Sequence record: EF437941
Direction: 5' to 3' (one strand)
Source: Escherichia phage Phi1
Length of the DNA stretch: 64,000 nucleotides
Position numbers and translations under genes: made by a program. Each line of letters starts with the position of its first letter. Positions within the stretch are counted from its first letter, which is position 1. The notes under the pieces were generated by a model. It did not search any database and had not been told where the DNA came from. It saw only the letters and a list, made by a program, of their open reading frames with translations. Below, piece by piece: positions 36,262 through 62,095 of this stretch.

Positions 36262-36289
36262 ATTATAGGCATCTAAATCGCTCTGTCAA
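36262..36289 (-). promoter_or_regulatory. consensus sigma70 promoter (- strand)
   Basis: On the - strand: TTGACA, 16 bp, TATAAT; drives the membrane-protein/HTH pair through a roughly 120-nt leader. Confidence 0.6.
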
Positions 36290-48894: not shown

Positions 48895-49715
48895 TTAGTC
48901 ACCTCACCGAAAATTGTAAATTGTCTACGATTCTCATCGCCGAAAGATTCTACTACGTCGTTTACCTTGACGCAAGTCCCGCGCGGTAAAATTACTTCAC
49001 ATTCGCAAGGGTTCCATGCAATTGACCCAACAACAAAACCTTTATGATCTTTTACGTCAATTACCCATGATACATTACAAGAATGTTGCATCTTTCCGGT
49101 CATGGATTCATATCGATTCTCACAATAAAGGCTAGTGCTATTTGAAAGCCAGCCTCCAAAGATGATCGGTGTCATGCTGGTCGATACAAAGTTTTTAAAG
49201 GTAAACTCCTTATCTTCAATAATACGCTCTATTGTCTGAATGTCAAGATGTTGACCGCGATAAAGAGTACCGTTTAACTTTTCGGTTTTATCCATGACAC
49301 AATCCATCAAATCAACAATCTCTGATATCTCATCGGTCATGTCTTCTTCCCCTAAGAGAGCACCATTTACCCATTCGTATTGTTCAGACACATAATCACA
49401 GATTGCATTATATTCTGCTGGGGTTATGTTGTTATGTTTGTAATGTTTGAATACATTATCTCCAAAGTCTTCGGAGTGTACTTCATACATCACATTAATG
49501 ATTTTCTTGACAAATCCATAATCTTGTGTCTCACGCTCAAGGAAGCGGATAACCTTCACATAATCATCAAAGTTAATCTGATCGCTGATCATCTCAGTGA
49601 TCATGTAACCATTAATCCCCTCAATGTCATATGTTTCGATGTAATTATCCATACGTTCCATCATTGATTCGCGTGATTCTTCTGAAAGACGAAAATCCTG
49701 TAATTTCTTGAACAT
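48891..49715 (-). CDS. ADP-ribosyltransferase, Alt-like paralogue (274 aa)
   Basis: R-S-E motifs LYRGQH / FKNFVSTSMTPIIFGGW / ECEVILPRG parallel to those of Alt; RBS GGAGG. Confidence 0.7.
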   Translation of the reverse strand: MFKKLQDFRLSEESRESMMERMDNYIETYDIEGINGYMITEMISDQINFDDYVKVIRFLERETQDYGFVKKIINVMYEVHSEDFGDNVFKHYKHNNITPAEYNAICDYVSEQYEWVNGALLGEEDMTDEISEIVDLMDCVMDKTEKLNGTLYRGQHLDIQTIERIIEDKEFTFKNFVSTSMTPIIFGGWLSNSTSLYCENRYESMTGKMQHSCNVSWVIDVKDHKGFVVGSIAWNPCECEVILPRGTCVKVNDVVESFGDENRRQFTIFGEVTK

Positions 49716-49793
49716 TTTAAACCTCCCATATAACAGAAAACGGGGCTAGTATAAAACTAGTCCCCGTTTGAGTCAACCATTATTTCTTAAAAA

Positions 49794-51845
49794 TTACATT
49801 TTAAATTTATCTGGCATTGCGTCTACAGATACCAGATCAGCGATAAGCTGACGTAGAGTTGCCTTATCTGCTTTCTTACGTTCGGTTTTAGCTTCGCTAA
49901 TGAAGCTGGAGAAAGACAGGTCAGAAGCAGGTTTAACAACACCTTCACGGATGAATGCATCACCGTCCGCGATCATCTCACCAGATTCTTGTAATGCTGC
50001 CAGTTCACTTTTGTTCATAATATGTGCCTCAATGTAATAAGTTTCTTGTGAATCCGTAGATGCCGTAGCACGAGTTACCGTATCAAAGGATAACACAACA
50101 CCGCGAGGAAGTAAAATCTCGCATTCTTTGTAAGCAAATGCTTTGTTACCTACTGGCAATACAGGGATGTTTTCCGCGCCAGCAATGGAGAAAGCAACAT
50201 TAGCGCCACCTTCACCGCGAGATCCAGCCATAGAATCTACCCCAGCAACGGCACTAGCCACGTTTGCATTCCAGCCGCCAAAAATGTTAGGTGCAAGGGA
50301 AGTGCTCACGTAGTTTTTAAAGTAAAACGCTTTTTGCTTACGTGCAGTTTCCCACATTTGAGACCGGAAGTCCATACCACGATACAGAATAGTACCCGGA
50401 TCAAGTTTAACGCCATAGTTAGAGAAGGCATTATCCAGTGCATCGCACATCTTGACCAATTCTTCTGGATCTGCGATTCCCTCAAACTCTTCCAGCTTGC
50501 GATCAGTTAGGAAGTTGTTCATATTGATGTATGCTGCATCGGCATATTCGCTCAACACAAAACCTTCCGCGCCCGGCAGATCAAGATCAATATCTGCCAT
50601 CATTTCACCCATGTTGCTAGCAATTGCTTCAAACATACCGGACGCAACATTACGAAGGGCATCGGTTTTAATCTGGGTGATATGACTACGCAGCATTTCA
50701 GCTTTTACATCTGCTGGCATAGACTGGTCTACTCGATCCATTGCCAGGGCGGTGATCTTGTTTTCGAATACTTCCTCGCTCATGATTTCTTTTAAGCGTT
50801 TGATTGATGCTGCGATAACTTCCGCAGACAACGGATCATATTGATCCTGAACTTTTACCAGTTCGCTTACTGCGTATTTTGCATCGGCTTCGCTTTCAAA
50901 AATAGTACGCATGAAACCATAGCGAGTGATAATATCACTTGTCCAGTCATTCAGAGAACGGGCGGTTGAACGTTCTAAGGCTTGACGGTCAATCAGAGTA
51001 TTAAACTGTTTCTTAGGTTCTGCTTCGGTGATATCTTCTTCCGGTTTAAGATTAATTTTTTCTGGATGATTCACATAGTCGCTGTTATAGGTCGCTTGAG
51101 TTTTCAGCATTTCTTCTTTAGTCAAACGAGATTTAGCCGCTACGCGTTGTTCCGCTTCCGCGTTTCGTTCTTCTTCTGACACAAGACTAGCCGCATATGC
51201 CTCATCTTTAGTCAGAGATTCACCAGTAGCCTTAGATACCCAGCGATCACCTAAATCACTTTCTACTTTAGTGAACAAGGATTCATCAAGTTTAATCCCT
51301 TTAATCTTATCAATCGCCATCCCGCGACGCTTGACAACAACTAAAGCGATCTTTTTGCTGGTCATTACTTCCTGCTGGAATACTTCAAACTTCGGTGTAC
51401 GACGCACCAAACGCTCTATAACGCGCTTAACCAGTTCGGTCTTACCTTTCATGCGGGATACGTTAAAACGGAACATAACAGCGTCTAATTGCGCTTTACG
51501 GGCTGTTTCCATAACCACATCAAACGCACTTGCCATAACTGCAATCGGGTTATCGCCTAGACCATTTTTAAGCTGTACAATACGACCGCTTTTGTTCATT
51601 TCGCACAGTACAACATGTGCGGTCTTGTCACCCATACGAATGATTTTAGGTGTTTTGTTGGTGAAGTTACAAAGACGGACAATCACATCTTTATCGCGTG
51701 TCTGTACTGCAAAAAGCTGTTTAGGATTCTGCTTCGGCTTTAAGCACTGTACCGGAGCAATACTGCCAAAGTTTTCTTCCTCTTCCGTCAACAGCCATTT
51801 CTCGAAAGATTCAATCATTAGATCGTCGATTTCTAAGTTAAACAT
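49794..51845 (-). CDS. alt: ADP-ribosyltransferase Alt
   Basis: 683 aa (T4 Alt 682 aa); LYRGMD / FKNYVSTSLAPNIFGGW / ECEILLPRG; position after gene 54. Confidence 0.85.
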   Translation of the reverse strand: MFNLEIDDLMIESFEKWLLTEEEENFGSIAPVQCLKPKQNPKQLFAVQTRDKDVIVRLCNFTNKTPKIIRMGDKTAHVVLCEMNKSGRIVQLKNGLGDNPIAVMASAFDVVMETARKAQLDAVMFRFNVSRMKGKTELVKRVIERLVRRTPKFEVFQQEVMTSKKIALVVVKRRGMAIDKIKGIKLDESLFTKVESDLGDRWVSKATGESLTKDEAYAASLVSEEERNAEAEQRVAAKSRLTKEEMLKTQATYNSDYVNHPEKINLKPEEDITEAEPKKQFNTLIDRQALERSTARSLNDWTSDIITRYGFMRTIFESEADAKYAVSELVKVQDQYDPLSAEVIAASIKRLKEIMSEEVFENKITALAMDRVDQSMPADVKAEMLRSHITQIKTDALRNVASGMFEAIASNMGEMMADIDLDLPGAEGFVLSEYADAAYINMNNFLTDRKLEEFEGIADPEELVKMCDALDNAFSNYGVKLDPGTILYRGMDFRSQMWETARKQKAFYFKNYVSTSLAPNIFGGWNANVASAVAGVDSMAGSRGEGGANVAFSIAGAENIPVLPVGNKAFAYKECEILLPRGVVLSFDTVTRATASTDSQETYYIEAHIMNKSELAALQESGEMIADGDAFIREGVVKPASDLSFSSFISEAKTERKKADKATLRQLIADLVSVDAMPDKFKM

Positions 51846-51878
51846 TTTATATCCTCTAGTTGATAACCTATAAACCTA

Positions 51879-51886
51879 TATTTATG
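51879..51886 (-). promoter_or_regulatory. possible late promoter variant CATAAATA upstream of alt
   Basis: One mismatch from TATAAATA on the - strand, about 35 nt upstream of the alt ATG. Confidence 0.3.
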
Positions 51887-51912
51887 AAAAAGGGGCTTAA
51901 CGCCCCCCTTTT
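51887..51912. terminator. bidirectional hairpin terminator
   Basis: AAAAA-GGGGC-TTAAC-GCCCC-CCTTTT. Confidence 0.6.
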
Positions 51913-51913
51913 A

Positions 51914-52126
51914 TTATAATGCACCATCGAGCAATTGCTCTAAGGTGTATCCTGAATAGTCTTTTTCAATCAGGGTATATTTTCCTACTCGTTTAATACA
52001 ACCGCGCATTTCAACGTATTCTGCGTAGTTGATGGTACGAGTTGTTCCATCTTCCAGTAATGCAGTACCGATTTCGTTAATGCGGTCATAAGTTACGTCG
52101 GTAATGATGATTTCGATGTTAGCCAT
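51914..52126 (-). CDS. hypothetical early protein (70 aa)
   Basis: ATG with RBS AAGGAG; begins MANIE like the 83-aa ORF at 54252..54503. Confidence 0.5.
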   Translation of the reverse strand: MANIEIIITDVTYDRINEIGTALLEDGTTRTINYAEYVEMRGCIKRVGKYTLIEKDYSGYTLEQLLDGAL

Positions 52127-52201
52127 TTGATACTCCTTAGTAGTTCGTTTCGGTATGGGTGTATTATGATATACACCCTCTGTTATGTCAACAACTTTTT
52201 A
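52127..52201 (-). promoter_or_regulatory. early promoter cassette 1
   Basis: On the - strand: A-run, TTGACA, 17 bp, CATAAT, conserved leader CCGAAACGA, RBS. Confidence 0.6.
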
Positions 52202-52378
52202 GAACATTTTTGAAATTAATTTTGCTTTGATTTCGCAGAGAACACCTAAAGATTTCTCGTCACCCGCTTTTGCTGCTTCTGATTGCATTTTTGAAATGGC
52301 TTCAATGTCAGTGCAATTATAAGCCGCTTGAACTTTAGCGATTGCGATGATTGCCGATTCGATGGTTAAGTGTTTCAT
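52202..52378 (-). CDS. hypothetical early protein (58 aa)
   Basis: ATG with RBS AGGAGA; below the ORF-track cut-off. Confidence 0.45.
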
Positions 52379-52447
52379 GTTTGATTCTCCTTTCGTTTCG
52401 GTATGTGTGTATTATGGGGGATCACCGATCCCCCTGTCAACAACTTT
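52379..52447 (-). promoter_or_regulatory. early promoter cassette 2 (GATC palindrome in spacer)
   Basis: TTGACA, spacer GGGGGATCGGTGATCCCCC, CATAAT, conserved leader. Confidence 0.6.
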
Positions 52448-52966
52448 TTAGTTATTTTTTAATTGCTCATCTTGCAATAGGGAAATCACATGCTGGCGAT
52501 GTTCTTCCGATTGAGGGACACCGAAAAAGTTTGTTTTGTAGAAATACTCTAATCGGTCTTCTCGTGTGCTCTCTTCCATCATGATCGCGGGTAGTCCGAG
52601 ATTTCGGAAACGTCGCTTTTCTGCTGGCGTAAAATCACTGTAATACAGCATAGAATCATCGTTACCAGCAATGCTAAACTCATCATTCATGAAGGAGAAT
52701 ATTGCGTTTAAACGCTGTTTACCGTCCACGATTTCGATCTCATAGCGAGAGCCATCATCAATCTTAGCCATTGCGATAGCACCAACCGGAAAATCATTAA
52801 TCAGGTTTTCGATAAACATACGTTTGTTTTCGGTGTCCCATACCAAAGGACGCTGATAATCTGGGTTCATGTTGATATAGCCATCTTCTAACCACGCCTC
52901 ATAAACAGAGATGACAAAGTTTTTAGTATTGGTATAGTAACGGCGTTTAGGCGTTAAACGGTTCAT
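52448..52966 (-). CDS. DUF262 / ParB-like nuclease-NTPase domain protein
   Basis: Start set to ATG at 52966 (RBS AGGAGA); PDYQRPLVW ... FIENLINDFPVGAI ... IVDGKQRLNAI matches the DUF262 signature (pFQR..W / DGQQR). Confidence 0.65.
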   Translation of the reverse strand: MNRLTPKRRYYTNTKNFVISVYEAWLEDGYINMNPDYQRPLVWDTENKRMFIENLINDFPVGAIAMAKIDDGSRYEIEIVDGKQRLNAIFSFMNDEFSIAGNDDSMLYYSDFTPAEKRRFRNLGLPAIMMEESTREDRLEYFYKTNFFGVPQSEEHRQHVISLLQDEQLKNN

Positions 52967-52967
52967 G

Positions 52968-53300
52968 TTATAGTCTCCTGAATGGATCATCACGTAAATC
53001 AATATCTTTTAAGAACTCATCCCATGAATGGCGGATATTGTTCTTAATTCTCCAGATAAGCGCAGGGATTGAACGCTCTCCCATCTGGAAGTAAGGATCA
53101 TATGATCCGTATGCCCAATATGCTACTACAATTCCACAATCAGCGCAATAATATTCTATTTCACTTGCTGGCGACCAAAGTCCATCAATATGATCGGTGA
53201 TCCTGCTTTCGATGTTATGGCTATGGCAATCAGGGCAACGGATGCAATGACCTTGTTTATCGTAATTTGACGTTAGCGAATACTTAAACAATCTCATCAT
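52968..53300 (-). CDS. Zn-ribbon protein (110 aa)
   Basis: CIRCPDCHSH ... YCADCG Cys/His clusters; translationally coupled to neighbours. Confidence 0.5.
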   Translation of the reverse strand: MMRLFKYSLTSNYDKQGHCIRCPDCHSHNIESRITDHIDGLWSPASEIEYYCADCGIVVAYWAYGSYDPYFQMGERSIPALIWRIKNNIRHSWDEFLKDIDLRDDPFRRL

Positions 53301-54013
53301 AGATCCTTATTGGCTTCAAATACTGCCTTTGCGAATCCTCGCGGGGTAAGTGACCTGATAGTCTTTGTTCTGGTTCCTTTCCCGCCTAGCTTAGAATGCT
53401 GTTTACTGTACCCTTTATTAATATGCAACGGTTTCTTTTCTGGCATTATAAAGCCTTGTCCGGTCCATAAGCAAGTCTTTTTCGGGTACATATCACGGGC
53501 GGCAATATACTCAGGAAACGTAGGATGTTTATCATCTTCCGGCAAATAACCGCCATATTCCCACGGATGGAACATGTAATCAGGCTTACGCCACATACTA
53601 GAGATAACGCTTACAGGATTCTCTATCATGTAGGGAACTCCTAGCCATTCACCCAAATAAGCGGTTATTTTAGCTGCCCGTACATCATGAACTTGAATCA
53701 ATGGTCCTTGTTCTCGTTTCTTTCGTTCAAAGTGTGCAGCGCCACTAACAGCTAAATTGGTGCACGGTGGGAATGCAAATATAATATCCGGTTTCCCCCA
53801 TTCAAGGTCCATTGCTCTTTCCAGCCAGTTCAAATCAATCCAGGTGTTTACATAAGTAATGTTTGGATGTTCAAATCTGGTATTATACTTTTTGTATGTA
53901 CCGTGGTCGGCGTCATCCGCATTAAAGCAGACTACCTTATGACCTGCTTTAGCCCATTCTAGCCCCATTATCCCCGATCCGTCAAAGTTGCAGAATATTA
54001 ATTTTTGTTTCAT
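53297..54013 (-). CDS. C5-cytosine methyltransferase-like protein (truncated, 238 aa)
   Basis: Motif I FCNFDGSGIMGLEWAKAG (FxGxGG), motif IV FAFPPCTNLAVSG (PC), motif VI MIENPVS (ENV-like), C-terminal SLTPRGFAKAV; no obvious target-recognition domain. Confidence 0.55.
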   Translation of the reverse strand: MKQKLIFCNFDGSGIMGLEWAKAGHKVVCFNADDADHGTYKKYNTRFEHPNITYVNTWIDLNWLERAMDLEWGKPDIIFAFPPCTNLAVSGAAHFERKKREQGPLIQVHDVRAAKITAYLGEWLGVPYMIENPVSVISSMWRKPDYMFHPWEYGGYLPEDDKHPTFPEYIAARDMYPKKTCLWTGQGFIMPEKKPLHINKGYSKQHSKLGGKGTRTKTIRSLTPRGFAKAVFEANKDL

Positions 54014-54255
54014 ATACGACCCTTTAACCCAGCACAGATTTTAGTCGGTTCTTTACCGTGCCACATTAAGTAAAGTCCGTTAATGCGACCTTGTTTTGTG
54101 TGTGATTCTTTTCTGATCTTCTTATAGTGTCGTGCTTCCTCAACTGATTGTTTAGAATACCAATCATAAAGGAAGAGGCACAAAGGCCAACCATTAGCGG
54201 CCTTAATGCAGTTATTAAGAAATTCCTTATTGCGTTTAATTAATTTTCTTTTCAC
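54010..54255 (-). CDS. hypothetical protein (81 aa)
   Basis: GTG start overlapping the upstream stop; coding status less certain. Confidence 0.4.
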   Translation of the reverse strand: MKRKLIKRNKEFLNNCIKAANGWPLCLFLYDWYSKQSVEEARHYKKIRKESHTKQGRINGLYLMWHGKEPTKICAGLKGRI

Positions 54256-54503
54256 GCTGCCCCCATTGGTTTGATAGTAACAGAATCTAAAAGACCTTTG
54301 TTAGCCAGTTCGCGGCAAGTTTTCAGATCCGTAACTTCCCAGCCAGCCGCAATCAGGTTATCGATGAGGCTGTTAGCTACTTCCTCGCTCATGAAAGAGC
54401 ACTGTTTGCCGATGGTGTAGCGCACACGATGTAATTTCAGTTTACGGAAGCCTTTAACGTTCAGGTCTTTAGCGATTTTCTTTGCGGTTTCGATGTTAGC
54501 CAT
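54252..54503 (-). CDS. hypothetical protein (83 aa), first gene of the operon
   Basis: ATG directly downstream of early promoter cassette 3. Confidence 0.5.
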   Translation of the reverse strand: MANIETAKKIAKDLNVKGFRKLKLHRVRYTIGKQCSFMSEEVANSLIDNLIAAGWEVTDLKTCRELANKGLLDSVTIKPMGAA

Positions 54504-54587
54504 TGTTTGATTCTCCTAAGTGGTATCTCGTTTCGATGGTTGTATTGTAGGGGGAGTTATCCTCCCCTGTCAACACTTTTTATAAAA
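54504..54587 (-). promoter_or_regulatory. early promoter cassette 3
   Basis: TTGACA, palindromic spacer GGGGAGGATAACTCCCCC, conserved leader and RBS. Confidence 0.55.
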
Positions 54588-54755
54588 TTATTTGTTAATT
54601 TCTGGTGCGTTGCTAGGATAGTAACCTTCTTTAACTCCGAGGTATTTCGCAACCATCCCTACAATCTTCTGTGCTACTACAATGTCAAATTTCAGATAAT
54701 CTTCGCCGTGGGTTTCAATGATATATGCTTCACATGCTGCTTTAGTCTCGAACAT
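54588..54755 (-). CDS. hypothetical protein (55 aa), copy 1 of a duplicated gene
   Basis: MFETKAACEAYIIETHGEDYLKFDIVVAQKIVGMVAKYLGVKEGYYPSNAPEINK; paralogue at 57863..58030. Confidence 0.55.
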   Translation of the reverse strand: MFETKAACEAYIIETHGEDYLKFDIVVAQKIVGMVAKYLGVKEGYYPSNAPEINK

Positions 54756-54831
54756 TTTGATTCTCCTATTTCGTTTCGGTATGTGTGTAGTATAGGGGAT
54801 CTCCCGACCCCCGTCAACAACTTTTTTAAAA
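54756..54831 (-). promoter_or_regulatory. early promoter cassette 4
   Basis: TTGACG, spacer GGGGTCGGGAGATCCCC, conserved leader. Confidence 0.55.
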
Positions 54832-55113
54832 TTATTCGTGATTAGTTTCGATGTTGTGCATTTTGCACCAGTTCAACCAATCACCCATATCTTGATAGTT
54901 GATGCTTTTATCTGCTGCCATCGTTTTTGTCTTGATACCCATATGTGCGTTATGAGTAAGCATTTTTACAGTGAACTCAATTTTATCGCCTTTAGCTTTA
55001 ACATCAACCAGTTTGGTCCACTGGCTACCAGCGCCGCGAATGTTCATACCAACGATGTTTCCGATGTATGCTTCTTTGTTTTTCAGGATTTCGGTTGCTT
55101 TGATGAATTTCAT
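54832..55113 (-). CDS. hypothetical early protein (93 aa)
   Basis: ATG with RBS GGAGAA. Confidence 0.5.
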   Translation of the reverse strand: MKFIKATEILKNKEAYIGNIVGMNIRGAGSQWTKLVDVKAKGDKIEFTVKMLTHNAHMGIKTKTMAADKSINYQDMGDWLNWCKMHNIETNHE

Positions 55114-55183
55114 TTTTGATTCTCCAGTTCGTTTCGGTATGGGTGTATTATGCTATGTTCTTACTTTGGTGTCAACAACTTTT
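55114..55183 (-). promoter_or_regulatory. early promoter cassette 5
   Basis: TTGACA, 17-19 bp, CATAAT, conserved leader. Confidence 0.55.
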
Positions 55184-55453
55184 TTAGATATTTTCAGAAA
55201 TAAATTTTAAAACTTGACGTAAATGTTTCTCATCTTTGATAGTCGCCGGAAGTTCTTCTTTTACTTCCTGTGCAAGATAGATATTTCCGTTCCAAGTGAA
55301 AGATCCGTCTTTGTTTACGCGATAGCTGAACATCCACTCGCAATCATTTTCGATTTCATATACACACAGAAGGGTGTAATCGTTAAAGCTATTGATTTCA
55401 AGGTCGAAGCCGTGACGTTTTGCAAAGTTGGTAGTGGTTTTAGTCAGTGCCAT
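55184..55453 (-). CDS. hypothetical early protein (89 aa)
   Basis: ATG with conserved leader and RBS. Confidence 0.5.
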   Translation of the reverse strand: MALTKTTTNFAKRHGFDLEINSFNDYTLLCVYEIENDCEWMFSYRVNKDGSFTWNGNIYLAQEVKEELPATIKDEKHLRQVLKFISENI

Positions 55454-55545
55454 TGTTTGATTCTCCTAAGTGGTATCTCGTTTCGATGGGTGTATTATGC
55501 TATAGGTCGGATCTGGTGTCAATTCTTTTTTTAAAATTTTATGCA
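55454..55545 (-). promoter_or_regulatory. early promoter cassette 6
   Basis: TTGACA variant with conserved leader. Confidence 0.5.
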
Positions 55546-55572
55546 ATAAAAAAGCCGACGCTAAGGTCGGCT
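55546..55572 (-). terminator. rho-independent terminator (- strand)
   Basis: On the - strand: AGCCGACC-TTAGC-GTCGGCT followed by TTTTTTATT. Confidence 0.65.
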
Positions 55573-55579
55573 AATAAAA

Positions 55580-55888
55580 TCATTTAGACAAATAATCATT
55601 CAGTGCAATCCGGTCGGCGTATGCTGGTGTTACGTCAATCGCAATCACTTTAACGCGTGCTTTCTTGCGACCTGGGTTTTCACGTAACCAGTGCTCATGA
55701 CCGTGAACATTTTTATACTGCGATGCTTCTTCGAAGGTACGGATCGGACCTGGGTAATCAGCGTAAAGGATCTCTAGATCTTCGGTGATGTAAAAATATA
55801 CATCATAATTACTGTTCTCTAGTTTAAGCAGAGACTTTCGGAACATTGGGAGATTTTCGCGGGTAAATTCAAAGATATTATCTTTCAT
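55580..55888 (-). CDS. HxHW-motif small protein (102 aa), family member
   Basis: HGHEHW ... VIAIDVTPAYAD. Confidence 0.55.
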   Translation of the reverse strand: MKDNIFEFTRENLPMFRKSLLKLENSNYDVYFYITEDLEILYADYPGPIRTFEEASQYKNVHGHEHWLRENPGRKKARVKVIAIDVTPAYADRIALNDYLSK

Positions 55889-55938
55889 AGTATTATCCTC
55901 AATAGTTGGATGAGAAGGGGCGTTAACGCCCCCATATA

Positions 55939-56226
55939 TTAAAACAGTCCTTCATGTACACCGTAGTAGAGTTCGTCGCTGATAATTTCATTAATGCGAC
56001 GGTGTGCATATTCCTGATTTGCGAAGTTGTCAGCAAGTTCTACTTTAGTTTCGCCGTCATGAGTCCATTTAGTGATAACTTTACCATCTGCAAATTTGAA
56101 GTTGAACTCTTTAGCTACTGCATCGCGTACCAGACGTGCAAACTTATTGTTGCGGATTGCATTGTCGGTTTCGTGTGAAGCGTGAGCAAATTTGTTAACT
56201 TTCAGAGTGATAGTGATGTATGCCAT
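55939..56226 (-). CDS. hypothetical early protein (95 aa)
   Basis: Shares the AKEFN.K segment with the ORF at 59265..59576. Confidence 0.5.
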   Translation of the reverse strand: MAYITITLKVNKFAHASHETDNAIRNNKFARLVRDAVAKEFNFKFADGKVITKWTHDGETKVELADNFANQEYAHRRINEIISDELYYGVHEGLF

Positions 56227-56307
56227 AATTTGATTCTCCTAGTTAGAAAGTGTATCTCGTTTTGATGGGGATATTATGCTATATCCCCGATCCGGTGTCA
56301 ACACTTT
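56227..56307 (-). promoter_or_regulatory. early promoter cassette 7
   Basis: TTGACA, spacer with GATC, conserved leader. Confidence 0.55.
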
Positions 56308-56586
56308 TTATAAAATAATTTTTTGATATTTTTCTATGATGTTCGTGTAAGTCACATCAACCGCTAGCACCGTTGCTTCGAATCCACCGTTTAGCCAATG
56401 GCTATGATCATGGTCGTGAAAGAAACCTAGACCAGTACGAAGACCTTCTTTATATTCTGCGCGTACATTCAGTTTGTCGTCGATAAACAGATAAAACCAT
56501 GAATTTTTACTAGGATTGATGATACAACCTTTCAGATTAGGGAGAATATCACGACTAAGAATAAACTTATCACCTACTTTGAACAT
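56308..56586 (-). CDS. HxHW-motif small protein (92 aa)
   Basis: Start set to ATG at 56586 (RBS GAGGA); HDHDHSHW ... VLAVDV. Confidence 0.55.
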   Translation of the reverse strand: MFKVGDKFILSRDILPNLKGCIINPSKNSWFYLFIDDKLNVRAEYKEGLRTGLGFFHDHDHSHWLNGGFEATVLAVDVTYTNIIEKYQKIIL

Positions 56587-56590
56587 AATA

Positions 56591-56911
56591 TTAGTCCTCA
56601 CTTATAAGGTCAAACCAATTGTTTTTCGCATAATGCTTAATGCGTGCTTGATCTGCTTCCGCTGGTGATAGATTCCATGCAACCACTACAACTTCTGACG
56701 CATCGTCATCCGTTTCTGATACCCAATGATTGTGATTCATACAGTTATTTGCTATCGAGTGAGCAAATGATTTCATCACTGGAGACGTATAATCATAGTA
56801 ACGGATTTTCAGATTTTCATCAACATACAAATAGATCGTATAAGGTTTATATTCAGTAACCAGTAACAGACAGTTACGCAATTCTGGGAAAATCTTTTTA
56901 GTTAATTTCAT
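56591..56911 (-). CDS. HxHW-motif small protein (106 aa)
   Basis: NHNHW ... SPAEAD. Confidence 0.5.
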   Translation of the reverse strand: MKLTKKIFPELRNCLLLVTEYKPYTIYLYVDENLKIRYYDYTSPVMKSFAHSIANNCMNHNHWVSETDDDASEVVVVAWNLSPAEADQARIKHYAKNNWFDLISED

Positions 56912-57113
56912 ATTCTAGTTCTCCGTAATACACGGTAATCCATTTTTCTTCATACTTTGTATCTTTCCAACACACAATACCGTTTACTGTGCAATCTTTG
57001 GAATTGACGAATGATTCATATTGTTCCGCATCTTCCATCATTTCATGAGCGGTCTTTTCATCGAATATATCGCAGATCGCTTTATATGCTCGATAATCTT
57101 TAAATTTGCTCAT
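56898..57113 (-). CDS. hypothetical protein (71 aa), tandem paralogue B
   Basis: Start set to ATG at 57113; MSKFKDYRAYKAI... Confidence 0.5.
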   Translation of the reverse strand: MSKFKDYRAYKAICDIFDEKTAHEMMEDAEQYESFVNSKDCTVNGIVCWKDTKYEEKWITVYYGELEYEIN

Positions 57114-57115
57114 AA

Positions 57116-57325
57116 TTAACACCACTCAAGAGTTTTTGAAAACACATCTATCCATTGTTGAGTATATGCGGTTTCTTTCCATGATACAATACCAGTCGAA
57201 TAATGGTTTTTGTTTCCAGAAAAGGACGGGCATTTTGATGCATCTTCCATCATCTTTTCGGCGAACTCTGGTTCGTATACTCGCAAGATCTGTTGATATG
57301 CTTTATAATCTTTAAACTTACTCAT
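57116..57325 (-). CDS. hypothetical protein (69 aa), tandem paralogue A
   Basis: MSKFKDYKAYQQI...; similar to the adjacent 71-aa ORF. Confidence 0.5.
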   Translation of the reverse strand: MSKFKDYKAYQQILRVYEPEFAEKMMEDASKCPSFSGNKNHYSTGIVSWKETAYTQQWIDVFSKTLEWC

Positions 57326-57606
57326 AACAACACCACCGATACATCGTAATCATTCGCGGCCTTATCGGCTTCTTCAACCGACATAATACCTTCTGCGACA
57401 ATTGGCATAGGGTGATCGTGATTCCACCAATGGTCATGTATATCAATTTCAGTTTTGCCGGAAAATGAATCATGTTTGACGTTTTTCACTTTATACCCGA
57501 TGTGACCGTCGTGGTCAATAAAGATATAGTTTCCGAAAATCGGTGTCTGTAAAATCATACCGAAAAATTTTTCTTTGTTGTTCGGGTCGAGTGTAATCAT
57601 TTTCAT
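57322..57606 (-). CDS. HxHW-motif small protein (94 aa)
   Basis: HDHWWNHDH ... EEADKAANDY. Confidence 0.55.
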   Translation of the reverse strand: MKMITLDPNNKEKFFGMILQTPIFGNYIFIDHDGHIGYKVKNVKHDSFSGKTEIDIHDHWWNHDHPMPIVAEGIMSVEEADKAANDYDVSVVLL

Positions 57607-57618
57607 AATATATTCCTC

Positions 57619-57798
57619 TTAGAAAGGGATGGTCATTTCTTGAGCTTGTACATTCTCATTAGGATTAAACTTAATCCAACCGATATTGTCTACCAGCATA
57701 TGCACATTTTTATCATATCCTACGTGAGTAGTCAACACTAAATGTGATTTACCTTCAACGATGATTTCCATGTACTTCTGAACTTCGATAGCTTTCAT
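57619..57798 (-). CDS. hypothetical protein (59 aa)
   Basis: ATG with RBS GGAGAA immediately downstream of promoter cassette 8; below the ORF-track cut-off. Confidence 0.4.
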   Translation of the reverse strand: MKAIEVQKYMEIIVEGKSHLVLTTHVGYDKNVHMLVDNIGWIKFNPNENVQAQEMTIPF

Positions 57799-57862
57799 TT
57801 TGATTCTCCGTTTGTTGTCTTGATGGGAGTATCTTACTACTCCCTTTAATCATTGTCAACTA
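57799..57862 (-). promoter_or_regulatory. early promoter cassette 8
   Basis: TTGACA, 17 bp, TAAGAT. Confidence 0.5.
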
Positions 57863-58030
57863 TTATTTGTTAATTTCCGGTGCGTTGCTTGGATAGTAAC
57901 CTTCTTTAACACCCAGATATTTTGCAACCATTCCGGTGATCTTCTGTGCTACTACGATATCGAATTTCAGGTAGTCTTCACCGTGGGTTGCTACAAAGTA
58001 TGCTTCGCATTCTGCTTTAGTCTGGAACAT
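57863..58030 (-). CDS. hypothetical protein (55 aa), copy 2 of a duplicated gene
   Basis: Start set to the internal ATG at 58030; MFQTKAECEAYFVATHGEDYLKFDIVVAQKITGMVAKYLGVKEGYYPSNAPEINK. Confidence 0.55.
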   Translation of the reverse strand: MFQTKAECEAYFVATHGEDYLKFDIVVAQKITGMVAKYLGVKEGYYPSNAPEINK

Positions 58031-58100
58031 TTTGATTCTCCTATATCTCGTTGGTATGTGTGTAGTATAGGGGATCGGTGATCCCCTGTCAACAACTTTT
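58031..58100 (-). promoter_or_regulatory. early promoter cassette 9 (GATC palindrome)
   Basis: TTGACA, spacer GGGGATCACCGATCCCC, conserved leader. Confidence 0.6.
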
Positions 58101-58409
58101 TTATTCTTCATCTTCATTTTTATCTTTATATGCGTACTTCATAAATTTGTCTGCTACTTTGTCCGCGTTTTCAGGTTCTACGTCTGACGCTAGGACAACA
58201 GCTAGTTCGGTTTTGTCGTTTCCATCATACCAATGATTATGAGTGTCGTTTTCTTCGATATAAAACGAATCATTTGGAGTTGTGCGACAATATACGTCTA
58301 AATTCCCATCGATATAAAAGATCCAATCCGAATACAAAATGATTGCGTTAGCCAGATTTTTATTGTCTCTTACAAAAGGTTCCGCGACAAATAGCTTAGT
58401 TTGTTCCAT
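58101..58409 (-). CDS. HxHW-motif small protein (102 aa)
   Basis: Start set to ATG at 58409 (RBS GAGGA); THNHW ... AVVLASDVEPENAD. Confidence 0.5.
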   Translation of the reverse strand: MEQTKLFVAEPFVRDNKNLANAIILYSDWIFYIDGNLDVYCRTTPNDSFYIEENDTHNHWYDGNDKTELAVVLASDVEPENADKVADKFMKYAYKDKNEDEE

Positions 58410-58425
58410 AATATTTTCCTCAAAA

Positions 58426-58617
58426 TTATACAGCTTCGTAAACTTCCCAATGTTCAGCGCCAACACGCTTAACGAAAAGGTTTTCTTTGATGTTATTCAT
58501 AAACGTCTGGATGGATTTAATGCGGTTGGAAGGTTTCCAGTCTTCGTTGGCATTGCGATGATACATAATAACATTACCAGTTCGCTTATATTCAGCAACC
58601 ATTTTAAGACCACACAT
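58426..58617 (-). CDS. hypothetical protein (63 aa)
   Basis: ATG with RBS GAGGA. Confidence 0.45.
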   Translation of the reverse strand: MCGLKMVAEYKRTGNVIMYHRNANEDWKPSNRIKSIQTFMNNIKENLFVKRVGAEHWEVYEAV

Positions 58618-58674
58618 AATATTATCCTCAATTTGTGGGAGAGTATTACCCCTCCCAATGATTGTTATGTTATA

Positions 58675-58995
58675 TCACACAAAATGGCGTGTCAATGCTT
58701 CTTTTGCGGTTCCGCTAAGACTTTCGATCTCGCCTGGCATAACATCAACCGCCAGAACTTCTACAACATCCTCGGACCCTAACCAGTGAGTATGGCCTTT
58801 GTAGAACTTGATAACCAGACTACCTTCCTCATCCCATTTAACACTATCGCTAGCCCACCACACATCACCGTCGATAAAGTTGATGTAAAGCACACTACGC
58901 CACATTGAATTAATTACTTTCAATACTGCGCCTTTCATCTCTTCCACGGTATGGTCTTCCATTTTGAAGACCTCACCTACCTGAACTTTTGCCAT
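58675..58995 (-). CDS. HxHW-motif small protein (106 aa)
   Basis: GHTHW ... VLAVDVMPGE. Confidence 0.55.
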   Translation of the reverse strand: MAKVQVGEVFKMEDHTVEEMKGAVLKVINSMWRSVLYINFIDGDVWWASDSVKWDEEGSLVIKFYKGHTHWLGSEDVVEVLAVDVMPGEIESLSGTAKEALTRHFV

Positions 58996-59012
58996 TTAGT
59001 CACCTCTCTTTA

Positions 59013-59192
59013 TTACATAACAATCACGCCAGCCGTTGAAAGTTGATGTTTCAACTGAGCATTTTCTGCTACCGTCAAATCAATGATTTCTTGTGACGCT
59101 GCAATCATATATCCATTGGTGATATTGTTTTGCATCAGTTCAATGGTTTCTTCGTTGTAGCGGATTTTAGCGATGATTTCGTTGAAGTTCAT
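59013..59192 (-). CDS. hypothetical protein (59 aa)
   Basis: ATG with RBS AGGAGA downstream of promoter cassette 10; below the ORF-track cut-off. Confidence 0.4.
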   Translation of the reverse strand: MNFNEIIAKIRYNEETIELMQNNITNGYMIAASQEIIDLTVAENAQLKHQLSTAGVIVM

Positions 59193-59264
59193 GATTGATT
59201 CTCCTAGTTCGTTTCGGTATGTGTGTATTATAGGGGATCTCCCGATCCCCTGTCAACAACTTTT
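59193..59264 (-). promoter_or_regulatory. early promoter cassette 10 (GATC palindrome)
   Basis: TTGACA, spacer GGGGATCGGGAGATCCCC, conserved leader. Confidence 0.6.
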
Positions 59265-59576
59265 TTAAAGTTTTTCCATGATAACGGTCATAATTACATC
59301 TTCTGCGCGAGCGGTCAGATTATCAGCGTCAGCATGTGGGCGGTTGGTTGTTACAGAGATAACACCGTTGCGCACTGGTTTGATATTGATATCAAGATGA
59401 TCCGCGAAACGTTCGCCAGTTACAGAATGAATTTTGGTGTTAAATTCTTTTGCCAGTGCCTTGCGAACTTCACGAATCAGGGTAGCGTTTTTCAGTTGGT
59501 TCTCCGCGCTCATGGTCTTCTGGGTGTTCATGGTTCCGTCGAAGTCAATCATTGGCAGCGTTACGATGTATTTCAT
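59265..59576 (-). CDS. hypothetical early protein (103 aa)
   Basis: ATG with conserved leader and RBS. Confidence 0.5.
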   Translation of the reverse strand: MKYIVTLPMIDFDGTMNTQKTMSAENQLKNATLIREVRKALAKEFNTKIHSVTGERFADHLDINIKPVRNGVISVTTNRPHADADNLTARAEDVIMTVIMEKL

Positions 59577-59663
59577 TTTTGATTCTCCGTTTAAGAAAGT
59601 GTGTTTCGTTTTGATGTGTGTATTATAAGGGGATCACCGATCCCCTGTCAACAACTTTTTGAA
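59577..59663 (-). promoter_or_regulatory. early promoter cassette 11 (GATC palindrome)
   Basis: TTGACA, spacer GGGGATCGGTGATCCCC, conserved leader. Confidence 0.6.
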
Positions 59664-60140
59664 TTATTTTTCTTGATGCTCGCGCTCGTACTTTTCGAAA
59701 TAAAATTCTACTGGCTGATCGTGGATTGAAAGCAAGCCAAAGCGTTTAGCCGCTCGCAATCCCATATTGCGCTGAATGTACTTCTGGAAGTTCTCGCGTA
59801 TACACTTACGCCAGGATTCTAAGCCCATACAGCTTTTATAAAGATTGCATTGCACACACGCCGGATTCATGTTATCAAGTATATCATGCTCCGGTTTATG
59901 CATTCCTACAACCTTATACTTCCACGATCCATCATCATTACGAGCAATTCGTCCATTTTCATCATAGACTACCTTTGAGCGTCGTAATACTGGTTTGATG
60001 TGGTCTGCGTGCCAGCGATCCCCTAGTTCCTCGCCACAATAGGCACAACGTCCACCATATTTCATTTTCAGGATCTGGCGTTGCTCTTTCTTTGACAATT
60101 TTTTAGGTTTAGGGGCTTTCGCCCCTTCATTATCACACAT
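59664..60140 (-). CDS. HNH endonuclease
   Basis: CAYCGEELGDRWHADHIKP plus NMNPACVQCNLYK (HNH motif with paired Cys clusters); start overlaps the ligase gene end. Confidence 0.75.
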   Translation of the reverse strand: MCDNEGAKAPKPKKLSKKEQRQILKMKYGGRCAYCGEELGDRWHADHIKPVLRRSKVVYDENGRIARNDDGSWKYKVVGMHKPEHDILDNMNPACVQCNLYKSCMGLESWRKCIRENFQKYIQRNMGLRAAKRFGLLSIHDQPVEFYFEKYEREHQEK

Positions 60141-61629
60141 CGAATACCTCTTTTACTGTATTTGCAGTGGTCTTGTCGTAGCGAATACGTTTGATGATCG
60201 GGAGAAATAAAGAGAACTCCGGTTCATCTTCTTTACGTGATTTGCTTCGAATGTACCCGTTGCATGTCATCTCAATGACTTTTCCGACCAGGTTATGCCG
60301 TTCAGCCCATAACATTTCTCGGTCAAGATCATTTCGACGATCGAACGGAATTACACGTTCAATACCATCATCACATTTTTCGGTTGTGGTGTCAGTCAAT
60401 CCCGATCCGGTGTTAGTCATCATTCGTCCGCACGCACTACGGACAGTAAAACCGCCCACCTTATTAGGATCTTTACTATGCGGATATACATCAACAATTT
60501 CCGCGTCGAAGTCAATCACTTCTTTAAATTTAACCTGATCTTTACTGCGACGATCTTCAAATACACCATGTAAATTTTTAAGGATAATACCTTCTAATCC
60601 CATGTTTACATAGCGATGATATACTTCGCGAGCTTCATCGAGATTGTTAACTACGGTATTTTCGATTATCTGAACACGAGGATCGTTAAGTTCTTCAACA
60701 ATCTGTTTTAGTTCCTCAAATCGATCTTTATACTGCTTCGTTGCTTTCTCGTTACCGTAGTACACATCACGGTCGATAACATCCCAGACAGTGTAAACAA
60801 TACATTGGGCTTCTTCTTTTGGAATAGTTCCTTTCAGTGATTTGTTGAGGATACCATTTCCGGTCTGACGATCTGCAACAACGGATTCTTTCACTGCTTC
60901 CGTTACTGGCGTTAATGGCATTTCCTCTTCTTCAAATATCCATGACAGAGTACCATCATAAACGCTCTCAACGAAGTTCTGCGCTGGTGTTTGCGAAAGG
61001 GTAGGCATATATACCAATTCGCCATCTAGAACAATTCCACGGCCTCGTAAACGCTCTAAAACCGCAAACAAATCATCAAGCCCTTGATAGGTATTACCTG
61101 AGCGGGTATAGATTGCTAATGTTTCCCCGTCAATATCAGCCATCCCACGAGCGCCATCGCTTTTAAGTTGTGCATACGCCGGATACTTGATATTAGCAAT
61201 AGTCTTGTCAGAACATGACGATGCAAGGTGGCACGGCTGCTGGGGGATCAGTTTCTTCCATACCTTGTTTGCAGTGGTAGCGGAACAACCGCATTCCAGG
61301 TCACGATTCAGGACCATCATTGCAACTTTAGCATCATCCTCTGACAAGCAAGTCAGAGTATCGGTAACTAGCTGTAATGCTGCATTACCAGTTACTTGAC
61401 GCGTGGCAAGTTTATTTTTAAAGACCTGTAATGCACCGGATAAAGACAATACAGACGAATAACGCGATGGTTTATCGTATTTCTTTACGCCAAACGTAAC
61501 CTGTTTGCAATATGCCAGATAAAAGCATTCTTTCAGCGTTTCATTGCTCGCGGATTCTTTCAGAATCTTTTCTTTCAGCGATGTTTTGTCTGTTGCTGCA
61601 AGCTGATTAATGATATTAAGAATTGACAT
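60133..61629 (-). CDS. 30: ATP-dependent DNA ligase gp30
   Basis: Start set to ATG at 61629 (RBS GAGGTGA); adenylation motif KSDGAR; overall resemblance to T4 ligase. Confidence 0.9.
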   Translation of the reverse strand: MSILNIINQLAATDKTSLKEKILKESASNETLKECFYLAYCKQVTFGVKKYDKPSRYSSVLSLSGALQVFKNKLATRQVTGNAALQLVTDTLTCLSEDDAKVAMMVLNRDLECGCSATTANKVWKKLIPQQPCHLASSCSDKTIANIKYPAYAQLKSDGARGMADIDGETLAIYTRSGNTYQGLDDLFAVLERLRGRGIVLDGELVYMPTLSQTPAQNFVESVYDGTLSWIFEEEEMPLTPVTEAVKESVVADRQTGNGILNKSLKGTIPKEEAQCIVYTVWDVIDRDVYYGNEKATKQYKDRFEELKQIVEELNDPRVQIIENTVVNNLDEAREVYHRYVNMGLEGIILKNLHGVFEDRRSKDQVKFKEVIDFDAEIVDVYPHSKDPNKVGGFTVRSACGRMMTNTGSGLTDTTTEKCDDGIERVIPFDRRNDLDREMLWAERHNLVGKVIEMTCNGYIRSKSRKEDEPEFSLFLPIIKRIRYDKTTANTVKEVFDV

Positions 61630-62095
61630 TTTCACCTCGTTTTGTTAAACGTTCACGAATATCATTGAGGATACTACAAAATTCCGATTCAGTCAATATA
61701 GTCTTTAACGGATCAGTTCCACCTATACTATGACGCAATTTCTTATTTCCGGTAGCGAGTAATGCTTTACAAAATTCTGGGTTATTCCGTGCCATCGTAA
61801 CAAATGCCAGATGTACCAGTCTGTAATAATGCTCACTCATTCGATGAATCGGGCGACCCTGAAAATATAACATGTGATTCTCTATCTTTTCGGTCCTTCC
61901 GGTTCTTTTTGCTTTGCCACCGTGCATCAAAAAGATTTCTCTTTGTCTCTGAGGGTTCTTAAATCTTAGCCCCTGTAAAAATCCTTCTGTGCTGTTAATA
62001 TCGCAACCAAATAGACGGAATGGTCTTTTATTGAAATTACTCAATTCACCCGATGGATAAGGTCCACCCGCATAGATATCAATTTCAGAAGTCAT
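61616..62095 (-). CDS. possible NADAR/YbiA-like (DUF1768) protein
   Basis: Loose matches to YbiA-like motifs: GELSNF, STEGFLQGLRF, ALLATGNKKL; 159 aa; overlaps the ligase start by 14 nt. Confidence 0.45.
   Translation of the reverse strand: MTSEIDIYAGGPYPSGELSNFNKRPFRLFGCDINSTEGFLQGLRFKNPQRQREIFLMHGGKAKRTGRTEKIENHMLYFQGRPIHRMSEHYYRLVHLAFVTMARNNPEFCKALLATGNKKLRHSIGGTDPLKTILTESEFCSILNDIRERLTKRGENVNS

Follow-up and report, generated by a model that had tools for sequence, protein, structure and literature searches.

RESULTS

The interval between alt and the DNA ligase gene

We analysed a family of repeated early-promoter cassettes in a 64,000-nucleotide stretch of Escherichia phage Phi1 (sequence record EF437941), here called the window. 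The cassettes lie in a region bordered by alt (49794..51845) and the DNA ligase gene (60133..61635). Positions 51500-60200 of the minus strand hold ~24 short genes, all on that strand, and a block of sequence recurs in 11 of the gaps between them, upstream of proteins that mostly have no Pfam match. By megablast, Enterobacteria phage GEC-3S (Krischvirus, Straboviridae) aligns with the whole of the region (8.7 kb) at 98.8% identity, and ~60 further Krischvirus genomes match it at 90-98%. Judged from these matches, the phage is a Krischvirus, an RB49-like T4-type coliphage. In RB49, ORF185c-212c (ORF, open reading frame) are syntenic with the region and likewise lie between alt and gene 30, and in the GEC-3S record the same 11 sites are already annotated as promoters, with -35 and -10 signals. 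The setting is the hyperplastic region of a T4-type genome, with the blocks placed upstream of small ORFans.

Arbiol, Comeau, Kutateladze, Adamia & Krisch (2010) described ~50 promoter-early stem-loop (PeSL) motifs per genome in RB49 and phi1, consisting of an AT-rich tract in which the preceding gene has its stop codon, a sigma-70 consensus promoter, a GN-loop-CN stem, a Shine-Dalgarno (SD) sequence and a start codon (PMC2839356). The genes used in that study (ORF192, ORF205/206 and ORF210/211) all lie in the interval studied here. Comeau, Arbiol & Krisch (2014) gave the RB49-type definition as TTGACA-N17-TATAAT with GN-loop-CN and extended PeSLs to other T4-like phages (PMC4122927), and according to Nolan et al. 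(2006) the mapped 5' ends of early transcripts are in agreement with the early-promoter consensus of RB49. We conclude with high confidence that the eleven repeats are PeSLs of an RB49-like phage and that the published model holds for them. Both the identity of PeSLs and their link to gene shuffling are already known for this genus and locus. A preliminary description of the stretch had remarked on a likeness to the promoter-stem-loop cassettes of T4-type phages, and these are indeed the published RB49-group PeSLs of the same alt-to-gene 30 region.

Number and anatomy of the cassettes

The preliminary description had counted at least eleven copies. By profile, regex and alignment there are exactly 11, each ~80-95 nt long, all on the minus strand and all within 52124-59669. 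An nhmmer profile scored them at E 4e-21 to 1e-9, with the next match in the 64 kb at E 0.03; made from the same 11 copies, this profile shows that nothing else similar occurs in the window and is not an independent rediscovery. A fixed-spacing pattern of promoter plus leader was matched 8 times, against 0.04 matches expected from shuffles. The repeat family is real, far beyond chance and confined to this interval. Its members, P1-P11, are as follows.

59574..59669, minus strand: PeSL P1; -35 box 59651-59646, -10 box TATAAT 59627-59622, ATG 59576; hairpin GGGGATCGGTGATCCCC at 59645-59629 in the spacer, GATC at 59632 and 59639, -12.6 kcal/mol, z -2.5; downstream gene 59265..59576, minus strand, 103 aa, RB49 ORF210-like.
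59190..59274, minus strand: PeSL P2; -35 box from 59256, -10 box TATAAT 59232-59227, ATG 59192; hairpin GGGGATCGGGAGATCCCC at 59250-59233 in the spacer, GATC at 59236 and 59244, -14.9 kcal/mol, z -4.5; four-gene module 59013..59192, 58675..58995, 58426..58617 and 58101..58409, minus strand.
58028..58110, minus strand: PeSL P3; -35 box from 58092, -10 box TATACT, ATG 58030; hairpin GGGGATCACCGATCCCC at 58086-58070, GATC at 58073 and 58080, -12.8 kcal/mol, z -4.1; downstream gene 57863..58030, minus strand, 55 aa, RB49 ORF205-like.
57796..57879, minus strand: PeSL P4; -35 box 57859-57854, -10 box TAAGAT 57836-57831, ATG 57798; hairpin GGGAGTAGTAAGATACTCCC at 57844-57825 over the -10 box, -12.2 kcal/mol, z -3.9; six-gene module from the ATG at 57798 down to 56308, minus strand.
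56224..56319, minus strand: PeSL P5; -35 box from 56301, -10 box CATAAT 56278-56273, ATG 56226 (95-aa ORF); hairpin GGGGATATAGCATAATATCCCC at 56288-56267 over the -10 box, -14.1 kcal/mol, z -2.9; GATC at 56289, outside the hairpin.
55451..55575, minus strand: PeSL P6; -35 box from 55522, -10 box CATAAT 55499-55494, ATG 55453; spacer with no hairpin (0 kcal/mol) and one GATC at 55510.
55111..55193, minus strand: PeSL P7; -35 box from 55175, -10 box CATAAT 55152-55147; no hairpin and no GATC; downstream gene from the ATG at 55113, 93 aa, RB49 ORF193-like.
54753..54835, minus strand: PeSL P8; -35 box TTGACG from 54817, -10 box TATACT, ATG 54755; hairpin GGGGGTCGGGAGATCCCC (GGGGTC-GGGA-GATCCCC) at 54812-54795 with a G.U wobble, one GATC at 54798, -13.3 kcal/mol; downstream gene 54588..54755, minus strand, 55 aa, a paralogue of the P3 gene (89% aa identity).
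54501..54591, minus strand: PeSL P9; -35 box from 54573, -10 box TACAAT, ATG 54503; hairpin GGGGAGGATAACTCCCC (GGGGAG-GATAA-CTCCCC) at 54567-54551, no GATC, -12.3 kcal/mol, z -2.7; five-gene module, minus strand, of 83, 81, 238 (cytosine methyltransferase in the annotation of relatives), 110 and 184 aa (GmrSD_N/DUF262).
52376..52458, minus strand: PeSL P10; -35 box from 52440, -10 box CATAAT, ATG 52378 (59-aa ORF, RB49 ORF186-like); hairpin GGGGGATCGGTGATCCCCC at 52434-52416, GATC at 52420 and 52427, -15.2 kcal/mol, z -3.2.
52124..52209, minus strand: PeSL P11; -35 box from 52191, -10 box CATAAT 52168-52163, ribosome-binding site GGAGTATCAA, ATG 52126; hairpin GGGTGTATATCATAATACACCC at 52178-52157 over the -10 box, -12.1 kcal/mol, z -3.8; downstream gene from the ATG at 52126, 70 aa, RB49 ORF185-like.

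From the downstream genes, P1 is the positional counterpart of RB49/phi1 PeSL211/210 and P3 that of PeSL206/205, whose promoter activity has been measured (PMC2839356).

A regex census, a promoter scan and a MAFFT alignment of the 11 blocks agreed on the anatomy. The AT-rich tract of a PeSL is present as an A-run, AAAAAGTTG, directly upstream of the -35 box in 10 of the 11 cassettes, and in P4 as AAATAATAG, which contains stop codons. Ten copies have TTGACA and one TTGACG, the spacer is 17 or 18 nt in all, and the -10 box is CATAAT (five copies), TATAAT (two), TATACT (two), TACAAT (one) or TAAGAT (one). With 10-12 of the 12 hexamer positions matched in every copy, these are near-consensus sigma-70 promoters. 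The promoter anatomy given in the preliminary description thus needs some correction: TTGACA is right for ten copies, the spacer of 17-19 bp never reaches 19 nt, and CATAAT fits five copies and not the other six. Its single leader gives way in the alignment to two subtypes of an ACAC[AC]CAT... leader, ACAC[AC]CATACCGAAACGA and ...CATCGAAACGAGATACC.... GGAG is invariant in the 11 cassettes and belongs to GGAGAATCAA, a motif that 10 of the 11 contain and that the window has exactly once elsewhere, 11 occurrences in all. The ATG follows 4-7 nt past GGAGAATCAA, completing the SD sequence and start codon of a PeSL.

The genes at 54503 and 52126 begin with the same 15 nt or five codons, ATGGCTAACATCGAA, as had been observed beforehand, and the two encoded ('MANIE') proteins showed no further similarity on comparison. 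This shared start is consistent with a cassette block that extends a few codons into the ORF. Comparison of the P1 and P5 genes detected no relationship, and no known RNA family was matched at E<=1 when 49500-60500 was scanned with Rfam.

A hairpin within the promoter

Nine of the 11 cassettes carry a stable, G/C-clamped hairpin of 6-8 bp that has the GN-loop-CN form of the PeSL stem-loop. In six it lies between the -35 box and the -10 box and in three (P4, P5 and P11, 7-8 bp) over the -10 box; no hairpin is present in P6 or P7. Folded as RNA, the nine gave -12.1 to -15.2 kcal/mol, with z-scores of -1.8 to -4.5 against dinucleotide shuffles. In Krischvirus as a whole we found 22 distinct variants of the between-box hairpin, with many different loops and with arms of the families GGGGATC/GATCCCC, GGGGAT/ATCCCC, GGGGAG/CTCCCC and CGGGGA/TCCCCG. 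The non-Watson-Crick pairs among the 22 number four, all of them G.T on the sense strand and none A.C. This pattern hints at selection on a hairpin in read-through RNA, not on a duplex-DNA site, the weight of the four events being reduced in that they are probably not independent.

A scan of IMG/VR for TTGACR-GGGG-N7-12-CCCC followed by a -10 box returned 73 loci, many of them on contigs unrelated to one another or to Krischvirus, some of these being jumbo-phage contigs of 260-420 kb. Hairpins with G4/C4 clamps that exactly fill the -35/-10 spacer were seen in many non-Krischvirus contigs, 262-424 kb contigs among them (for example loci L040, L047, L061, L075 and L084, within L015-L087). The composite terminator-in-promoter design seems, from these matches, to be far wider than the T4-like phages in which PeSLs were described.

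GATC sites in the spacers

In six cassettes a palindrome of a G-run and a C-run does fill the spacer, as the preliminary description had it, but the form GGGGATC-N3/4-GATCCCC with two GATC sites, 7-8 bp apart, is limited to four (P1, P2, P3 and P10); P8 has one GATC and P9 none. GATC also stands at spacer nucleotides 4-7 in P5 and P6, outside any hairpin there. From the palindromes the preliminary description had suggested methylation- or protein-dependent control. The GATC pair would then be a Dam-methylation switch, or a site for SeqA or another protein, and firing of the promoter or cruciform formation would follow the state of the phage DNA, fully, hemi- or unmethylated, for example limiting early transcription to the injected parental DNA.

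The spacers do concentrate GATC, with 11 sites in 193 nt compared with 6 per kb in the window, and the site is kept in all ten counterparts of P6 while the bases that follow it vary. The sequence is, against this, abundant genome-wide (929 observed and 885 expected; 386 and 354 in the window) and is not avoided, and, the cassettes being paralogous and trading sequence with one another, the enrichment does not represent independent events. A formal test of spacer enrichment was rejected for this reason, the stems falling into ~3-4 independent families. An enzyme is at hand as well. Krischvirus encodes its own Dam-like adenine methyltransferase: outside the window, the RB49-type genome OZ035808.1 has a 270-aa D12-class N6-adenine DNA methyltransferase at 117166-117957 on the minus strand (locus L013, ~17566-18357; Pfam PF02086, E 2e-30, DPPY motif). 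With E. coli Dam as the tblastn query, no match was obtained in the window.

The comparison with sister phages argues against a switch. Just 4 of the 11 copies have two GATC sites, and counterparts of P1, P2, P5, P8 and P10 have lost GATC or half of it. Five of the ten relatives carry GGGGAGGTTAAACTCCCC at P2, a stem free of GATC, and five have GGGGAT-CACGT-ATCCCC at P1, where a single GATC is left; two of the ten are without GATC at P5. At P8 and P10, A-to-G changes remove one GATC yet keep the pairing as G.U. Across a whole RB49-type genome, GATC arms are found in only 7 of ~25 hairpin-bearing PeSL-like promoters; the others have GGGGAG/CTCCCC or CGGGGA/TCCCCG arms, or the -10-overlapping stems GGGAGTAG...ACTCCC, GGGGATAT...ATATCCCC and GGGTGTAT...ATACACCC. 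In the IMG/VR scan all GATC stems came from Krischvirus contigs, and the non-Krischvirus spacer hairpins left after hairpin filtering, ~15 distinct ones, pair at their inner stem positions and include none with GATC. Across copies and sister phages GATC is thus not conserved at a fixed position, as would be expected of a Dam-controlled promoter. In the Dam-sensitive promoters of the IS10 transposase (pIN), Mu mom, pap and agn43, a strictly conserved GATC lies in the -10/-35 boxes or in the binding site of a regulator. The cassettes resemble these in having GATC within promoter DNA and a Dam-family enzyme available from host and phage; they differ in that GATC sits in spacer hairpin arms which are interchangeable with non-GATC arms.

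We therefore consider a Dam switch or protein site very unlikely. The hairpin is the maintained feature and GATC is not, because stems with and without GATC replace one another ahead of the same gene. On the simplest reading of these sequences, GATC hitch-hikes with the commonest stem subfamily and has spread as cassettes copied from each other. GATC, Dam and methylation go unmentioned in both PeSL papers (PMC2839356, PMC4122927). In one version of the idea the GGGGATC...GATCCCC subfamily would be a methylation-sensing variant, with early promoters, or exchange at them, responding to differences in Dam status between parental and newly replicated DNA. We consider this very unlikely as well.

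Unlike GATC, two other tetranucleotides are strongly under-represented in the window, GGCC (24 observed, 72 expected) and AGCT (122 observed, 203 expected), and both are likewise scarce in the whole RB49-type genome (OZ035808.1, L011-L014; GGCC 89 and 184, AGCT 338 and 534). This deficit looks like restriction-site avoidance in a lineage able to carry unmodified cytosine, as close relatives of the phage are.

Chimeric cassettes at deletion junctions

The preliminary description had also proposed cassette-mediated gene shuffling and a comparison with related phages. We made this comparison over the alt-to-ligase region of ten relatives, tabulating for every cassette its flank, spacer, leader and downstream protein. 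A first breakpoint analysis by greedy chaining of high-scoring segment pairs merged or dropped segments, and only the positions of insertion sites were kept from it; the remaining breakpoints come from coverage analysis and direct reading of the cassette sequences. The proposal was supported by chimeric cassettes at four natural deletion junctions, the deletion ends being confirmed by coverage analysis:

PHB13: ORF186 lost; P10 flank and spacer joined to the P11 leader tail.
MIZ4: ORF186-191 lost; P8 flank joined to the P11 leader.
G5211: 58118-59663 lost (1.5 kb); P1 flank joined to the P3 leader.
FL04: 54827-57861 lost (3 kb); P3 flank ahead of the P8 leader and gene.

Gains are placed in the same way. 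The additional RB49 modules ORF192, ORF195-196 and ORF211 enter at or beside cassettes, as does a 367-nt insert of JSE at 54825-54831. The isolate of the window is without ORF192 and ORF211 and has its own combination of hairpin loops. Among the ten relatives the same loop is found, like a barcode, at different loci in different phages: GGGGATCACCGATCCCC, which the window has at P3, occupies P2 in kvi, MIZ4 and RB49, and GGGGATCGGTGATCCCC, which it has at P1, occupies P3 in KMB43, JSE and RB49. Variants at differing loci point to frequent exchange between cassettes. Finally, two modules of cassette plus 55-aa gene, those of P3 and P8, are a dispersed 300-nt duplicate within the window (54534-54833 and 57809-58108; 78% nt and 89% aa identity). 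The natural deletions and the hopping hairpins together support cassette-mediated shuffling.

The movement of hairpin variants between loci, among phages that are otherwise 90-99% identical, could also mean that the GGGG...CCCC stem-loop serves chiefly as a signal for recombination at the DNA level, a cruciform or protein target for site-specific exchange, with termination secondary. Every large multi-gene deletion that we saw joins two cassettes, as such a signal would predict. The crossovers, where they can be located, fall outside the hairpin, however; in PHB13 the exchange lies between the -10 box and the SD sequence. P7 and P6, which have no hairpin, still border the PeSL-flanked insertions ORF192 and ORF195-196 of RB49. 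T4-type recombination requires <50 bp of homology, and the tolerated mismatches, G.T on the sense strand only, fit a role at the RNA level. We know of no dedicated recombinase for cassette exchange, which also counts against a signal of this kind. Arbiol et al. themselves raised the possibility, and their mini-circle junctions lie past the -10 box and ahead of the ATG or SD (PMC2839356). Overall we regard it as unlikely, and favour general recombination between cassettes with the hairpin acting in RNA.

Other features of the region

The following features lie outside the 11 cassettes or within their modules.

51892-51906: terminator after the P11 gene, ahead of alt.
55572-55553, minus strand: stem of a canonical intrinsic terminator, followed by a T-run, just upstream of P6 (terminator scan).
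49714..49794, minus strand: element of promoter plus hairpin, related to the cassettes yet distinct from them, located downstream of alt (TTGACT, 17-nt spacer, TATACT); hairpin AAACGGGG...CCCCGTTT over the -10 box, -20 kcal/mol, unmatched by the cassette profile.
55580-55888, 56308-56586, 56591-56911, 57322-57606, 58101-58409 and 58675-58995, minus strand: H-x-H-W paralogues.

Near-consensus sigma-70 promoters outside the cassette profile were seen at 49748-49776, 36262-36289 and 34004-34040, all on the minus strand. The promoter at 49776 has a 12-13 bp hairpin across its -10 box and that at 36289 a short stem over it.

The six H-x-H-W paralogues are small proteins (~92-106 aa, 18-29% identical to the first) that share this invariant motif and are scattered through cassette-bounded modules; two of them were scanned and matched no Pfam family. 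Two tandem paralogues of ~70 aa (56898-57113 and 57116-57325, minus strand) both begin MSKFKDY... and contain an 88-nt repeat of 72% identity. At the other end of the region, an HNH endonuclease gene (59664-60140, minus strand; Pfam HNH, E 5e-6) overlaps the end of the DNA ligase gene and abuts P1, and in RB49, JSE, PHB13 and KMB43 the 345-nt ORF211 is inserted exactly between the HNH gene and P1.

The 238-aa ORF of the P9 module (53297-54013, minus strand) is annotated in relatives as Dcm or a C5-cytosine methyltransferase. FPPC and ENP motifs can be found in it by eye, and it had no match in Pfam or NCBIfam. The 184-aa GmrSD_N (DUF262) protein (52448-53002, minus strand) belongs to the same operon, two genes downstream. 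Krischvirus SAP has an unexplained cytosine hypermodification that is missing in the >99%-identical TB34 (2026 paper, PMC13390438), and this module may be of interest for hypermodification of the SAP type.

DISCUSSION

Each cassette fills the interval that follows a small early gene's stop codon. In the published model, which we adopt, it would supply the next gene or small operon with an A-rich, UP-like tract and a near-consensus sigma-70 promoter for the unmodified host RNA polymerase right after infection, together with an untranslated leader of conserved sequence and, in GGAG, a strong site for ribosome binding. Lying upstream of the cassette's own transcription start, the hairpin would take its RNA form only in read-through transcripts from upstream, where it would attenuate or terminate read-through and so insulate each module. 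The preliminary description had set RNA hairpins against promoter spacers. This is a false choice, because the palindromes have their place in spacers and also become RNA when transcription from upstream reads through them. The shared sequence of ~80 nt, recurring every 0.25-2 kb in direct orientation, would be a substrate for the homologous recombination of the phage, by which intervening modules would be deleted, duplicated or swapped.

The anatomy, the stability and maintenance of the hairpin, the synteny, the chimeric junctions and the duplication are the steps of this scheme that our own analysis supplies. Activity is known from RB49 and phi1. Whole PeSLs are very strong promoters there; most clones carried -35 or -10 mutations, and the sole wild-type clone, of PeSL206/205, gave ~13,000 Miller units (PMC2839356). 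The hairpin of one counterpart, PeSL211/210, acts as a terminator and cut read-through about as much as rrnB T1 (PMC2839356). Recombination between neighbouring PeSLs excises mini-circles (ORF192 and ORF210), whose junctions, by inverse polymerase chain reaction, are bounded by the -10 box on one side and the SD or ATG on the other; for the ORF192 deletion the AT-rich tract was proposed, at a site that was inferred and not mapped (PMC2839356). By analogy, every copy in the window would be active like its counterparts, and we infer that the -10-overlapping hairpins, which have no U-tract, may attenuate read-through as well. RB49 has a divergent regB (PMC3014915), and it is plausible that RegB cleaves the GGAG sites of the cassettes as it does those of T4 early mRNAs.

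Several observations weigh against this scheme. On the minus strand the terminator scan called none of the nine cassette hairpins a canonical intrinsic terminator, and only the separate site at 55572-55553 was called. After the spacer hairpins comes UAUAAU and not a clean U-tract, and after those over the -10 box no U-tract at all. Termination has been demonstrated for just one RB49/phi1 stem-loop, and both the promoter and the terminator measurements come from RB49/phi1 counterparts. By our own tally, roughly 8 of the 12 indel or replacement events among the ten relatives are bounded by cassettes, and four smaller ones have their ends at gene junctions that hold no cassette:

gene 189.1: lost in JSE.
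58995: 265-nt insert in JSE.
56344-57106: replaced in JSE and KMB43.
57328-57602: absent or diverged in G5211 and PHB13.

Because about a third of the events end in this way, the cassettes are not the sole route of change. Megablast breakpoints were about half at cassettes and half elsewhere, and were not used as a statistic, some of them representing divergence and not indels.

These events also bear on whether the repeats might be alike solely through selection for strong early expression, with no causal part in gene gain and loss. The cassettes stand at 11 of ~24 gene junctions (~12% of the nucleotides), so some coincidence with breakpoints is expected, and the third of events at other junctions would fit such a reading. 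It would not account for chimeric cassettes exactly at four independent deletion junctions, for identical first five codons in two unrelated proteins or for the 300-nt duplicate of cassette plus gene, nor for the published mini-circle junctions inside PeSLs (inverse PCR, PMC2839356). We hold it to be very unlikely and retain the PeSL model, in which cassettes have a part in gene exchange.

The cassettes of the window agree with the RB49/phi1 PeSLs in genus, alt-to-gene 30 hyperplastic region, architecture, small ORFans and indels (PMC2839356). There is no essential difference; the GATC content of the stem subfamily is absent from the discussion in the PeSL papers. The PeSLs and PmSLs of PST/T4 and nt-1/KVP40 share the idea of a composite terminator and promoter and the proposed role of linker in modular shuffling, but their promoters have TTTACW, TTGYVH or Mot boxes in place of near-perfect sigma-70 boxes, and their stems are AT-richer (A3-4G3-loop-C3T3-4, AGNA-loop-TCNT) where those of the window have G4/C4 clamps (PMC4122927). 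As Arbiol et al. pointed out by comparison, lambdoid morons and integron cassettes are likewise small accessory genes with their own expression signals. Morons, however, are not thought to move via regulatory sequences, whereas here the regulatory cassette itself would be the homology for general recombination, and integrons use a dedicated integrase and attC sites.

The GATC content of the stems is the only part of these observations without coverage in the literature. If it were Dam-responsive, early genes would have a new layer of regulation, and methylation-sensing PeSLs would add a layer of timing or copy discrimination not considered in the PeSL papers; the comparative evidence argues against this. 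The main point is that PeSLs and their link to gene shuffling can be rediscovered from sequence alone, and the comparison of ten relatives adds modest independent support for the published PeSL model.

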